64,000 bases of DNA from Candidatus Doudnabacteria bacterium (GCA_963840645.1 CAWIZL010000004.1:395470-459469), one strand, 5' to 3'; shown: positions 19,501 through 22,997, counted from the first letter of the stretch. Numbers and translations: made by a program. Notes: generated by a model not told the origin, from the sequence alone.

Positions 19501-19563
19501 TGGTGGAGGCTGTGGGACGAAGTTAGAGGGGAGATTGCTAAAATTAACTCGCCCACCTATTGA
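19501..19563 (+). repeat. attL of element A: tRNA-Lys 3'-end core TGGTGGA fused to the orphan recombinase tail (RLWDEVRGEIAKINSPTY*)
   Basis: tgg tgg agg ctg tgg gac gaa gtt aga ggg gag att gct aaa att aac tcg ccc acc tat tga. The core and reading frame match the recombinase A / tRNA-Lys junction at 22922. Confidence 0.75.
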
Positions 19564-19567
19564 TCTT

Positions 19568-20161
19568 TTACAACCTTACTGGAGGCATACCCACCACCAT
19601 TGGCGATGGGCCTGCAAGTATTTCCTGCAATGGGATACCCAGAAACGTTGCTACCTGGTTTGCAATTGAAAGTTCCTTGCCCTGGCCGCTCATCAGCACG
19701 CCCGCCACTGATTGCCCAGAACTCTTGGCGTTTTCTAGCGGCACCTCAGTGCCATCCTTGAAGACAATCACGGACTGCGAGGTGAGCACCTCTTGTGGCA
19801 CTGACATGGCACCCTTTTCAGCAGGTGTGCTCTGCTGCATGTGGTACTCCTTGCGCAACTCAACACGCACGGCATCCTGCGTGGCGTACGCTGCTGACTT
19901 ACCTGCCAGAATGCTCTTCTTTGCAAAAGAAATTTGGCTCCTGTTGATTTGCACTGTGATGCTGCCACTGACCAAGATCAGCACGAGTCCGAAAACAAAG
20001 ACTACGACAGGAACCCAGATAATGTTTGAGAAACCAGAAGTAGCATAGTAGTGGTAGGATAGGTACAAACCTACGAGCAGCAATATTACGCCAATGACCA
20101 AGCTAGAGGCATTGCCATCTTTCAAGGTCATCTCATCTTGTGTCTGGTTCACGATTTTCAT
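19568..20161 (-). CDS. membrane protein, unknown function
   Basis: 197-aa ORF with two N-terminal TM segments. Confidence 0.6.
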   Translation of the reverse strand: MKIVNQTQDEMTLKDGNASSLVIGVILLLVGLYLSYHYYATSGFSNIIWVPVVVFVFGLVLILVSGSITVQINRSQISFAKKSILAGKSAAYATQDAVRVELRKEYHMQQSTPAEKGAMSVPQEVLTSQSVIVFKDGTEVPLENAKSSGQSVAGVLMSGQGKELSIANQVATFLGIPLQEILAGPSPMVVGMPPVRL

Positions 20162-20177
20162 ACCTTAAATGTTAATT

Positions 20178-21212
20178 TTATTGGCTAACTAAATTTAGTG
20201 CTGCTTGGGTGTCGTAGGACGGTTGTCCGCCTACTGTTCCGTCATTTACTTGTTGTATGCCGGTGAGCGTCATCGTGTAGCCGTACAAAGACGTGGAGCC
20301 ATTTACATTCAAAGATACTGACTGGCTCTGCCCAGAAGCATTGTCCTTTACCGTCATGGTGAGCTGGCTCATTGTTAAGTTGGTGACTTGAAAGTAAAGA
20401 GCACCCCCATTGCCGCCGCCGCTTTCACCGGAGCCTTGGTATAGGTCCAACGTTTCTAAACCAGCGCCGAGCGTTGGAGTTGTACCAGCAACTGTTGTTG
20501 GGATTGGAGTTTCAGTTGGCGTAGGTGCTTGCGTTGATGGGAACATTGGCGCGCTCACAGAAGCACTACCCTGCGCCGCTTTCGGCAGGGTAATTTTGCA
20601 GTACTGGTTGAGGGAGGCGGTGGTGGCACTTGAACCCGTTGACGGGTTCTGCCAATCGCCGAGGTAGGTCGCCAAGAGTGGAAGCGTGAACGTGCAGTCC
20701 TGGGTCATGCCGATGCTCACCTGCTGCGACTGGTTGTACTGCGCGATCGACTGCGTGTAGGTATCCAACTGCGCCTGGGTGATTTTACCAGAAGCCAGGT
20801 ACTGGTTTTCCAAGCTGGTGTCAACGACCACGCTGAACGCCGTCCTCGTCGAAAATATGTGGCAGTACTGTCCAGAGTAGCCGAGTATCTGCGCGTGCTC
20901 GCTATCATTGTTTATGACCCCAAGCCCCGTGTTCTGGTTGATTGTGGCGTTCACCTCTGACGGGCTGCACGTCTTCGAGGCAGCAACAAACCCAGCAAAG
21001 TCTGTGCCGTAGTCTTTAGTGTTAGTTGTTGGGGTTGGGGTAACCGCAACCATTGTTGGCGTGGGACTGGCTGTTGGTGCTGAGCTGGGCGTTTGAGTAG
21101 TAGTTTGTGCAGCTTGGATAGGTGCAGGTGTCTGAGTGGAAACCTGCGGAGAAGAATTGCATCCAGCAGCTATGAGGACAACGACGGGCAAAACCAGTAA
21201 AAACCTTTTCAT
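20178..21212 (-). CDS. lipoprotein, Thr/Pro/Gln-rich
   Basis: MKRFLLVLPVVVLIAAGCNSS, a signal peptide with a lipobox. Confidence 0.7.
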   Translation of the reverse strand: MKRFLLVLPVVVLIAAGCNSSPQVSTQTPAPIQAAQTTTQTPSSAPTASPTPTMVAVTPTPTTNTKDYGTDFAGFVAASKTCSPSEVNATINQNTGLGVINNDSEHAQILGYSGQYCHIFSTRTAFSVVVDTSLENQYLASGKITQAQLDTYTQSIAQYNQSQQVSIGMTQDCTFTLPLLATYLGDWQNPSTGSSATTASLNQYCKITLPKAAQGSASVSAPMFPSTQAPTPTETPIPTTVAGTTPTLGAGLETLDLYQGSGESGGGNGGALYFQVTNLTMSQLTMTVKDNASGQSQSVSLNVNGSTSLYGYTMTLTGIQQVNDGTVGGQPSYDTQAALNLVSQ

Positions 21213-21308
21213 TTGGTTGAGGTTATTAATTTACTACAGTGTGGCATGAATTACCCGTTTAAACAAACTTGCTTTCTCTTAGTAAAGCTAGTCCAACCCG
21301 TTTTCGCC

Positions 21309-21497
21309 TTAAGTGGTATATGTATCTAGTATAACGGGAACATGGAGACAGGGGCGCAAAACGCAGGGAGCAGCGTGGGCGCGTGGCAGTGCCACATTGC
21401 CCCCGCAGCCACGGGAGCGGCGAAGAGCTTGAGACAATACCCAAAGGCGAGTATCCTGCTGATACCAACATGAACATTCTCTACTGTAGAAAATCAT
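21309..21497 (-). CDS. remnant of a small Pro-rich protein (homolog of 27593..27796), 5' end overlapping recombinase A
   Basis: The C-terminus ...NVALPRAHAAPCVLRPCLHVPVILDTYTT aligns in frame with ...GVAAPPRTPPAPCPPVILDI of element B. The N-terminal part is antisense of the recombinase start. Confidence 0.3.
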   Translation of the reverse strand: MIFYSRECSCWYQQDTRLWVLSQALRRSRGCGGNVALPRAHAAPCVLRPCLHVPVILDTYTT

Positions 21498-22963
21498 CAG
21501 AAGCCGCTGACCGACAGGTTGCTTCCATTGAATCTCAAAAGGACAACCTGCTTGAGCTTGCCGAGAAGAGCGGCTTAACCGATGTTAAAATTTTCATCGA
21601 GAGCACGTCTGCCAAAGAGCCGGGTCGCCCAGAATTTGCGAAGATGGTTGCCCTCATCAAGGCAAACCCAGGCAGCACGTTGCTCGTGTGGAAGCTGGAC
21701 AGGCTTGCGAGGAATCCCGTCGACGAGGGTGAAATCAAGTGGCTCTTGCAGATCAGGACGATTGCAAAGATAGTTACGCCCGAGAGAACCTACTACCCAG
21801 AGGACAACTCCCTCATTGCCTCAGTTGAGTTCGGCATGGCGACCCAGTACATCAAGGACCTCTCGATGAACATCAAGCGGGGCAACAGGAGCAGGCTTGA
21901 GAGGGGTGGGCTACCTGGACCCGCGCCAATCGGCTACCTCGATAACAGGCAGACGAAGCAGAAAGAAATTGACCAAACCAAAGCTCCCCTGGTTCAGCAA
22001 GCCTTCGAGCTGTACGCAACTGGCGGCTACTCCCTGAAGCAGCTCATGGCAACCATGAACGACCGAGGCTTGAGGACTAAGGGTGGATTGAAGATCGCAA
22101 AGTCAAAGCTGCACCGAATGCTCCAGAACCAATTTTACATGGGGACAATTCAGCGCGGTGGAAAATCATACACGGGTTCTCACGAGCAAATTATTTGCAC
22201 AAAGCTGTTCGAGGATGTGCAACGTGTACTATCTGGCAAAGGTCGCCCACGGCCACAGAAGCACGCTTTCCACCTCGGAGGCTTCATGTCCTGTTCCCAG
22301 TGCGGCTGCGCGTACACCGCGACAATCAAGAAAGGCCACACGTACTACTACTGCACGAACGGCAAGAAAAATTGTGACCAGCACAAGAAGTACACTGGCG
22401 AAGAGCTGGCAGATGAGCTAGCTGCTAAACTCTTAAAAGAGATTCAATTCTGCGAGGAGGATATTGAGATTGCGTACCTAGCCGCTAAGGAAGAACTGAT
22501 TTCAGAAACAAAATCTTCTCACGTCAAAAAAGACGAACTGCCCAAGAGGCTTAAAACTATCCAGCAGCAGCTCTTAAACCTTGCGGAGGTGATCTCGTCA
22601 GACCCGAGCATGGCAAACGCGCTGAAGCCCCAAATTTTAATCCTGGAGGCACAGGCGAAAGCTATCGAGGCACAGATTTCAGACACTACGGTTCAAACTC
22701 CAGACCAAGCACTTTCGACTTTGGAACAAACAAAAAAGGCCTTTCTGCAAGCCTCAAAAGCGAGTTTCAACTACTCAAATGGCGACGATGCGTACAAGTC
22801 TGAACTGCTCAAAATTCTACTTTGGAACTTTTCGCTGCGAGATCAAACCGTGCAGTCGTACCAGTTCAAATCTCCATATTCTCTAATGGCACAATCTCCC
22901 AAAAAGCTCGATTCTGACGAATGGTGGACCGGGTGGGATTCGAACCCACGACCAATTGATTAA
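21470..22963 (+). CDS. large serine recombinase A
   Basis: MNILYCRKSSEAADRQ (resolvase-type catalytic Ser region), recombinase domain, zinc ribbon CSQCGCAYTATIKKGHTYYYCTNGKKNCDQH, and a coiled-coil C-terminal part. The last 14 codons are antisense of tRNA-Lys. Confidence 0.9.
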   Translation: MNILYCRKSSEAADRQVASIESQKDNLLELAEKSGLTDVKIFIESTSAKEPGRPEFAKMVALIKANPGSTLLVWKLDRLARNPVDEGEIKWLLQIRTIAKIVTPERTYYPEDNSLIASVEFGMATQYIKDLSMNIKRGNRSRLERGGLPGPAPIGYLDNRQTKQKEIDQTKAPLVQQAFELYATGGYSLKQLMATMNDRGLRTKGGLKIAKSKLHRMLQNQFYMGTIQRGGKSYTGSHEQIICTKLFEDVQRVLSGKGRPRPQKHAFHLGGFMSCSQCGCAYTATIKKGHTYYYCTNGKKNCDQHKKYTGEELADELAAKLLKEIQFCEEDIEIAYLAAKEELISETKSSHVKKDELPKRLKTIQQQLLNLAEVISSDPSMANALKPQILILEAQAKAIEAQISDTTVQTPDQALSTLEQTKKAFLQASKASFNYSNGDDAYKSELLKILLWNFSLRDQTVQSYQFKSPYSLMAQSPKKLDSDEWWTGWDSNPRPID

Positions 22964-22997
22964 GAGTCAACTGCTCTACCAGCTGAGCTACCGATCC
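22922..22997 (-). tRNA. tRNA-Lys(CTT)
   Basis: GGATCGG TA GCTC AGCTGGTA GAGC A GTTGA CTCTTAA TCAAT TGGTC GTGGG TTCGAAT CCCAC CCGGTCC A CCA. Full cloverleaf. Confidence 0.92.

Follow-up and report, generated by a model that had tools for sequence, protein, structure and literature searches.

The 64,000-nt stretch of DNA analyzed here (the window; Candidatus Doudnabacteria bacterium, GCA_963840645.1 CAWIZL010000004.1:395470-459469) harbors two intact minus-strand tRNA genes, tRNA-Lys(CTT) and tRNA-Arg(TCG), each of which is overlapped on the opposite strand by the 3′ end of a recombinase gene (Table 1; all coordinates are positions within the window unless a relative is named). The last 14 codons of recombinase A are the antisense of the acceptor stem and T-arm of tRNA-Lys, and its open reading frame (ORF) ends at 22963 as ...DSDEWWTGWDSNPRPID / ...KKLDSDEWWTGWDSNPRPID followed by a stop. 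Likewise, the final 22 codons of recombinase B are antisense to tRNA-Arg. Each recombinase/tRNA junction carries a short core that recurs upstream of the recombinase, where it is followed by what appears to be the displaced native 3′ end of the recombinase gene. The two TGGTGGA copies of element A (22922–22928 and 19501–19507) share the codon phase, and the sequence after the copy at 19501 reads WW-RLWDEVRGEIAKINSPTY up to a TGA stop at 19561–19563. In element B, the junction and displaced tail (23028–23140) read RWC-ALWDEVGRAL..., starting from an attL core (23028–23037) that lies 32 nt upstream of the 5′ end of tRNA-Lys. The displaced tails of both elements are homologous (LWDEV) and in frame with their junction cores. 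Element A thus extends from 19501/08 to 22921/28 (3.4 kb) and element B from 23028/38 to 29335/45 (6.3 kb). Very probably, A and B are small integrative elements of the same family, inserted in tandem, and each is moved by its own large serine recombinase (LSR), with an attP site that spans the 3′ end of the recombinase gene. The original prediction for this DNA had described the tRNA-Lys-antisense end of recombinase A and the in-phase recurrence of the 7-nt core at 19501. Its sequence statements all check out and its structure of element A stands, but element B in tRNA-Arg was overlooked.

Table 1. Features of elements A and B and of the tRNA genes that they occupy.
Feature	Position	Strand	Remarks
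Native intrinsic terminator of the tRNA-Arg/tRNA-Lys operon	19466..19487	−	GC hairpin and T-run; displaced by 3.4 kb by element A
attL of element A, core TGGTGGA	19501..19507	+	Repeat, antisense of tRNA-Lys ...TCC-A-CCA; family crossover interval inside core
Displaced native 3′ end of recombinase A (predicted P′ half-site of attP)	19508..19563	+	RLWDEVRGEIAKINSPTY and stop, in frame with core
Cargo gene of element A, 197-aa predicted membrane protein	19568..20161	−	No family match
Cargo gene of element A, 344-aa protein	20178..21212	−	Lipoprotein-like N-terminus; no family match
Large serine recombinase A, integrated form, 497 aa	21470..22963	+	Pfam and fold match
attR of element A, core TGGTGGA	22922..22928	+	Repeat at recombinase/tRNA junction
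tRNA-Lys(CTT), intact	22922..22997	−	ARAGORN and Rfam; target of element A, predicted B′ arm of attB
attL of element B, core GGTGGTGCGC	23028..23037	+	Last 8 nt antisense of tRNA-Arg 3′ end GCGC-A-CCA
Displaced native 3′ end of recombinase B (predicted P′ half-site)	23038..23140	+	ALWDEVGRALQNHQLRDYSVNNEKGQQIWQQTKG and stop, in frame
Cargo region of element B	23215..27371	mixed	ORFs of 94 aa and 177 aa on +
Cargo of element B, two S-adenosylmethionine (SAM) methyltransferases	24151..24939 and 26433..27371	−	Pfam
Cargo of element B, DUF218 protein	24936..25622	−	Pfam
Cargo of element B, 244-aa protein	25634..26368	−	
Small conserved ORF, 67 aa, just upstream of recombinase B	27593..27796	+	Homologues in L001, L002 and L109
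Large serine recombinase B, integrated form, 505 aa	27886..29403	+	73% identical to recombinase A
attR of element B, core GGTGGTGCGC	29336..29345	+	10-nt repeat
tRNA-Arg(TCG), intact	29338..29414	−	ARAGORN and Rfam; target of element B

The ancestral organization of the locus was found in a relative, L110, which was retrieved via the flanking holA gene (DNA polymerase III delta subunit, window 17444–18523; the holA proteins are 68% identical). In L110, tRNA-Arg(TCG) (4231–4307) and tRNA-Lys(CTT) (4325–4400) are uninterrupted and separated by 17 nt, and a hairpin terminator homologous to window 19466–19487 lies directly 3′ of tRNA-Lys. We assembled the corresponding empty site in silico by joining the left flank of the window up to 19500, positions 22922–23027 and the sequence from 29336 onwards. 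The joined sequence, which lacks 19508–22928 and 23038–29345, is colinear with L110 over the promoter, both tRNAs and the terminator. The empty site in L110 confirms all four junctions of elements A and B, and both predicted deletions are exact to the base. Since a homologous hairpin adjoins tRNA-Lys in L110, the hairpin at 19466–19487, which is bordered by A/T runs and sits directly left of the core at 19501, represents the original tRNA terminator, as had been proposed from the window. The proposal that a crossover within TGGTGGA rebuilds the tRNA with its terminator (attB) is likewise borne out by the colinearity with L110, and also by the position of the crossover interval of the family, which falls inside this core. 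The ancestral chromosome would thus have carried, on the minus strand, a promoter, tRNA-Arg, a short spacer, tRNA-Lys and the terminator. L110 encodes two additional tRNAs (Arg-GCG and Leu-GAG), a 1556-aa protein and a 55-aa protein between tRNA-Lys and holA (L110 4400–10000). These genes are missing from window 18523–19500, which contains a 152-aa membrane-protein ORF and a 75-aa ORF, and this difference in gene content indicates that the neighborhood of the tRNA cluster is rearranged among close relatives.

The 7-mer TGGTGGA by itself is no proof of integration: its 13 copies in the window, compared to ~7.6 expected, are not significant. Rather, the significance comes from the second element, the empty site in the relative, the family-wide recurrence described below, and the rarity of the 15-nt motif TGGGACGAWRTKRGR, of which the whole window holds two copies compared to 0.1 expected. 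Each copy has, a few bases to its left, a core that recurs where a recombinase gene meets a tRNA gene. The displaced tails of the two elements share this motif; the P′ motif of element A (TGGGACGAAGTTAGAGG) is at 19513–19529 and that of element B at 23042–23058. Excised element A would encode a recombinase ending in ...DSDEWW-RLWDEVRGEIAKINSPTY. The junctions predicted for element A are ...CTGACGAATGGTGGAGGCTGTGGGACGAAG... for attP and ...TTTTGTGCTTGGTGGACCGGGTGGGATTCG... for attB.

Domain content and predicted fold identify both recombinases as LSRs. Pfam searches detected the Resolvase domain PF00239 (E = 2e-19 for A and 1e-18 for B) and the Recombinase domain PF07508 (RD; E = 2e-16 for A and 3e-15 for B). 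The zinc-ribbon domain (ZD) PF13408 (Zn_ribbon_recom) scored 34.6 bits in B, above the cut-off of 25.3, and 25.1 bits in A, slightly under it. In the homologue alignment, Y5, R7, K8 and S9, which include the catalytic serine motif, are invariant, and so are the zinc-ribbon cysteines C275, C278, C295 and C302. The AlphaFold model shows long helices (residues 329–450) following the zinc ribbon, and the best Foldseek matches were the integrases of SPbeta (9y66/9dxd, E = 9e-20), Bxb1 (9iu2), phiC31 (9tep) and LI (4kis). Serine recombinase domains alone were detected by Pfam, with no tyrosine recombinase catalytic domain. Based on homologue alignment, the true start of recombinase A is probably ATG 21470 (MNILYCRKSS...) and not GTG 21383. 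The database protein (P0001, 526 aa) corresponds to the longest ORF from GTG 21383 and probably has 29 extra residues at its N-terminus.

With the reconstituted free form as query, a protein search retrieved 976 relatives at E < 1e-10, nearly all of them from metagenomes of Patescibacteria, also known as the Candidate Phyla Radiation (CPR). Scanning GTDB, with one genome per species, revealed more than 580 loci, the nearest relatives of recombinase A being in Candidatus Doudnabacteria. Eighty of these loci were fetched, and all locus statistics rest on fetched loci. Among 79 complete homologous ORFs, 56 end within the 3′ part of a minus-strand tRNA gene and about seven more read through a tRNA (~63/79 in total). 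The targets comprise at least 11 tRNA species (Gln, Ser, Trp, Ile, Asn, Tyr, Arg, Lys, Leu, Pro and Gly). The C-termini of the relatives fall into three classes: tRNA-antisense ends (...DSN..., ...ESN..., ...DLN...), very short ends with a stop 2–4 codons past the junction, and, in a minority, a native tail of the type x-[WLVM]-[DYFK]-[DE]-[VI]-[RG]-T.... The tails reconstituted for A and B align with the native tails of 13 homologues. Integrated tails range from 2 to 36 aa in length and vary freely in sequence.

The frame is kept at the junctions because these share an ungapped register: in 42 loci, the conserved coding motif CCN-AAA-AAY-NNN-GAT-TTT and the T-loop are separated by a constant, gap-free distance. 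At about 15 loci, attL could be located 3–10 kb upstream, with a core of at least 6 nt followed by a native tail in frame. The agreement of core and frame that the original prediction named as a test was found in every further element with a located attL (~15 loci; ~28 attL/attR pairs). Moreover, in six-frame translations of 109 loci, all 31 occurrences of the motif W[DEY][DEAY][VI][GR]T were on the strand of the recombinase, with none on the opposite strand. In-gene attP sites are the rule for this large and apparently undescribed LSR family of the Patescibacteria. A full-text library without most subscription journals yielded no account of the family or of a serine integrase with attP inside its gene. 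Some loci show further arrangements. L022 contains five orphan WDEVGT tails (317, 2980, 4719, 6034 and 6458), each preceded by a tRNA-Gln 3′ remnant and all located upstream of one recombinase/tRNA-Gln junction, which looks like an accretion array built by repeated insertion and decay.

Native tails are also found on free forms of the element. Among the homologues with a native tail, P0021 is the closest (56% identity to A). It is encoded on L109, a contig of 4,375 bp whose ends share a direct overlap of 121 bp. This overlap closes it into a circle of 4,254 bp that carries an LSR gene with intact tail next to genes for a small 54-aa ORF, a Rep protein (REP_ORF2-G2P type) and an HNH protein. 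The order small ORF, Rep, recombinase recurs in L002, and neither L001 nor L002 contains a tRNA gene. No terminal overlap was detected in L001, L002 or nine further short contigs, which leaves L109 as the sole demonstrable circle. It had been proposed that the free recombinase ends in the displaced tail, and the alignment of the reconstituted ends with native C-termini of non-integrated homologues, including that of the circular L109, agrees with this. No unintegrated homologue was seen to end in tRNA-antisense codons, a finding that would have spoken against the proposal; the free forms carry native tails. Native-type tails were also observed on some copies in genome contigs, i.e., L042 (1800–2100), L050 and L054. 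L042 has a tRNA-Gln gene only ~140 nt past the stop codon, and this arrangement may be an attP-like junction left by a second insertion at an occupied site followed by deletion.

The tail is conserved largely at the DNA level. Aligning 32 tails at the nucleotide level gave the consensus TGGGACGAWGTTRGAAC, in which third codon positions are almost fixed: Asp is encoded by GAC and Val by GTT in 28 of 32 tails each, and Gly/Arg by GGA or AGA in 31 of 32. In the same genes, GAT encodes the conserved Asp of the upstream arm at 33 of 42 loci. Tolerated changes in the tail are purine-for-purine or A/T swaps, with interchange of Gly and Arg or of Val and Ile, and conservation ends ~25 bp from the crossover, the information dropping to zero right past the motif. 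As judged from these alignments, the pattern of variation is that of a protein-binding DNA site, unlike that expected for a helix.

Compared with the tRNA arm, GGGA-TTCGAAC (B′), the tail arm reads GGGA-CGAWG-TTRGAAC (P′), and the 5-nt insert is present in all 32 tails. Thus, the likeness of the tail DNA to the T-arm that had been pointed out earlier is right and can be refined to a 5-bp register shift. Paired attL and attR sites (~28 pairs) share identity blocks of 4–16 nt each. All blocks intersect over 4 nt at the 3′ end of the tRNA, namely acceptor positions 71 and 72, the discriminator and the base that follows it. Serine integrases cleave at a central dinucleotide common to attP and attB, and here these 4 nt define the interval for it. 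With the center placed at this interval, TTCGAAC is located ~14–20 bp out in attB and TTRGAAC ~19–25 bp out in attP. For the Listeria LI integrase, the ZD motif occupies positions 16–24 of the 25-bp attP half-site and lies 5 bp further inwards in attB, and the same 5-bp register shift has been described for phiC31 integrase, with RD at 4–15 and ZD at 17–27. Because the 5-bp shift and the 25-bp half-site agree with both LI and phiC31, the conserved tail would largely represent the P′ half-site of attP, through which the ORF runs to the next stop codon. The 5-bp register of the ZD motif was found for the P′/B′ arms alone. A palindromic attP was also considered and rejected, as the P arm (CCNAAAAAYNNNGATTTT) and the reverse complement of P′ agree at most in an RTT.

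Based on these data, we propose that the crossover takes place at the extreme 3′ end of the tRNA gene in the discriminator/CCA region, for element A inside TGGTGGA. The chromosomal B′ half-site would consist of the tRNA acceptor stem and T-arm, and the P′ half-site of the element would be a built-in T-arm mimic, TGGGA-CGAWG-TTRGAAC, with the T-stem-like GGGA at unchanged distance from the crossover and the T-loop-like TTRGAAC 5 bp farther out. Serine integrases distinguish attP from attB with their zinc-ribbon domain through just such a register difference. The P half-site would coincide with the codons of the conserved ...PK(N/K)xD(F)xx(W/M) C-terminal segment; the roles of RD and ZD on each arm and the exact crossover dinucleotide are those that we infer from this layout. 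In the free element, the recombinase would end in x-L-W-D-E-V-(G/R)-T..., a predicted helix. Upon integration, the tRNA would stay intact, the native tail and the tRNA terminator would be moved to attL, and the ORF would be fused to arbitrary tRNA-antisense codons. According to this model, the end of the recombinase differs between free and integrated forms because the ORF runs through attP.

Could the overlap of recombinase A with tRNA-Lys and the upstream TGGTGGA with its tail be a coincidence, with a resident recombinase gene or with true ends elsewhere? The abundance of TGGTGGA (13 copies in the window) would allow for this, but the empty site in L110 fits both predicted deletions to the base and thereby refutes such a view. 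It is also at odds with two independent instances within the window, the overlap with a tRNA at fixed register in ~63 of 79 homologous loci, and the 31:0 strand asymmetry of the displaced tails, so that its probability is close to nil. A different reading takes the tail/P′ arm as a captured tRNA 3′ fragment that provides homology for strand exchange, as in tyrosine-integrase islands, and not as a recognition mimic. An origin from a tRNA fragment is plausible, as the P′ arm contains both T-stem-like and T-loop-like blocks. However, attL and attR are identical over merely 4–16 nt, the T-loop-like block is shifted by a conserved 5-nt insert in 32 of 32 tails, one P′ consensus serves elements in 11 different tRNAs, and serine recombinases need no extended homology. 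We therefore consider a captured fragment very improbable.

An alternative at the protein level is that the tail swap acts as a functional state switch, the native C-terminal helix being needed for attP × attB integration or confining the enzyme to it. On this view, loss of the helix on integration would alter activity or directionality, e.g., by silencing the enzyme or by permitting excision independent of a recombination directionality factor (RDF), with Mx8 IntP/IntX as a precedent. In the AlphaFold model of the free form, a confident helix (482–500; predicted local distance difference test, pLDDT, ~88–90) spans the crossover, and the values drop to 54 and then 37 in the integrated form; the pLDDT is driven in part by the native tails in the alignment. 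Also in line with a switch, a hydrophobic residue two positions past the motif is kept despite variable first and third codon bases, outside the 25-bp half-site. Moreover, the 3.4-kb element A has no evident RDF candidate, the RDF of phiC31 is contacted by the extreme C-terminus of the integrase, and the properties of the Mx8 integrase change upon integration. On the other hand, the conservation of the tail core is explained by DNA, given the fixed third positions, the interchange of Gly and Arg and the end of conservation at the half-site border. The free length (2–36 aa) and sequence of the integrated tails imply that no particular integrated tail is selected. Overall, a switch appears rather unlikely. 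Equally doubtful is an extended version in which the in-gene attP serves more than compaction and the P′-encoded helix is a cis-acting directionality element. Its reversible removal by integration would toggle the enzyme, with no separate RDF, from competence for integration to competence for excision (or to silence), and the ZD would read the universal T-loop and the RD the acceptor stem in a naturally modular, retargetable family.

Several observations weigh against the preferred reading, i.e., two elements moved by LSRs with in-gene attP sites. The roles of the att sites are all taken from the analogy to solved LSR complexes, P and P′ are not mirror images, and the B arms, which lie downstream of the tRNAs, are poorly conserved. 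No gene for an RDF, the separate factor on which excision by serine integrases depends, was recognized in the elements. Scanning the metagenome collection for the tRNA-Lys/tRNA-Arg junction with the exact tRNA ends of the window gave no match, and neither did a scan for an A/B-like attP (QSYQFK codons, gap, TGGGACGAAGT). The outer P′ motif departs from the family consensus GTTRGAAC in both A (GTTAGAGG) and B (GTGGGACG). Element A lacks the small conserved ORF, and the region upstream of its recombinase resembles that of B only promoter-proximally. The Rep gene is missing from both elements. Because of the deviant P′ motifs, the absence of the small ORF from A and the lack of Rep, elements A and B may be decaying, immobilized relics that have lost their mobility. 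Both recombinase ORFs are intact.

The small conserved ORF (54–67 aa, motif K.YF.D.FGQ.I..E.A..YL) precedes Rep and recombinase in the free elements L001 (576–740), L002 (1608–1811) and L109 (1653–1817). It has no Pfam match and could encode a regulator or a directionality factor. When the cargo of both elements and the small ORF were searched with Pfam and PHROGs, only the methyltransferases and the DUF218 protein were matched. The G/C content over the cargo of element B (24000–28000) is 41–46%, compared to ~50–55% in the surroundings, which fits a foreign origin.

Integration of the two elements also separated tRNA-Lys from its expression signals. Element B lies between tRNA-Lys and the operon promoter upstream of tRNA-Arg, and may provide a substitute promoter. 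A promoter-like site, TTGCCC-17 nt-TATAAT (10/12 matches; 23085–23113, minus strand), faces tRNA-Lys from within the displaced tail ORF of element B. At the other end of the tRNAs, terminator-like hairpins with a T-run are located antisense within the recombinase genes of A (22736–22755, minus strand) and B (about 29146–29171, minus strand), and also in L004, L006, L024, L037 and L039. These hairpins are found 184 nt beyond the tRNA 3′ end, in the codons of the conserved EQTKKAFLQA motif, and a more distant subfamily (L064, L066, L070, L076 and L078) has strong hairpins (−12 to −21 kcal/mol) 34–36 nt beyond the tRNA. Antisense terminators within the recombinase gene are modestly enriched (32/64 compared to 20/63 for a control region) and could substitute for the displaced tRNA terminator.

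In its mechanism, the system of A and B is that of a serine integrase. Among known systems, the large serine integrases of phages and integrative and conjugative elements (phiC31, Bxb1, A118/LI and SPbeta) share domain set and fold with recombinases A and B. They likewise use short att sites with little mutual homology and a 7–8-bp distal motif that lies 5 bp farther out in attP than in attB. In contrast to these enzymes, whose attP lies beside the gene, attP is here located within the recombinase ORF and is markedly asymmetric, the 3′ ends of many different tRNAs are targeted over the family, and an RDF is not recognized. Further differences are the element size of 3–7 kb, a rolling-circle-type Rep in some members, and the patescibacterial hosts. 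In Islander-type tRNA islands, the direct repeats span tens of bases and the integrase is a tyrosine recombinase; here, the repeats are 7 nt (A), 10 nt (B) or 4–16 nt (relatives), and the integrase is of the serine type.

The combination of an in-gene attP with a swap of the C-terminus has known precedents only among tyrosine recombinases, i.e., Mx8 and the SSV1-type integrases. The archaeal SSV1-type integrases carry attP inside the integrase gene and target tRNA genes, but the gene of these tyrosine recombinases is split into two large parts and inactivated, whereas only the last 15–35 codons are exchanged here. In the mycobacteriophages BPs and Brujita, attP is in the 3′ end of a gene, and integration swaps or truncates the C-terminal tail and changes the behavior of the protein. 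In this integration-dependent immunity, however, it is the repressor gene that is crossed, a tyrosine recombinase acts as integrase, and experiments have demonstrated the switch. The target of phiRSM-type integration is a tRNA-Ser gene, and myxophage Mx8 also integrates at tRNA genes. In Mx8, attP resides inside int, and integration gives a recombinant gene with a new 3′ end and an altered C-terminus. Thus, as for A and B, an attP in the integrase ORF means that integration changes the encoded integrase (IntP/IntX). Mx8 differs in being a tyrosine system with other chemistry and site architecture, and its altered activity has been proven by experiment, compared to a predicted structure here. 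In phiRSM-type systems, a serine-family recombinase serves as integrase, but these small serine recombinases are devoid of RD and ZD, and their attP is not in-gene.

According to a survey from 2020, no serine integrase had been reported to use a t(m)RNA gene; the survey itself found just 14 of 297 candidate cases. The family described here goes against the assumption that serine integrases avoid tRNA genes, since a large group of Patescibacteria elements uses them exclusively. It offers a natural test of the 5-bp attP/attB register rule across dozens of independent sites. Within the family, one distal motif (the T-loop) goes together with inner sequences that vary (the acceptor stems of 11 tRNAs), which is the kind of modularity wanted for retargeting integrases in genome engineering. 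For annotation, our findings mean that most family members in the databases bear meaningless tRNA-encoded C-termini, and that orphan WDEVGT mini-ORFs flag the far ends of elements. If the tail swap did act as a switch, the directionality of a serine integrase would be set by an integration-dependent change of the enzyme, as shown for the tyrosine integrase of Mx8. For the Patescibacteria, the family adds to a set of mobile elements that is barely known.

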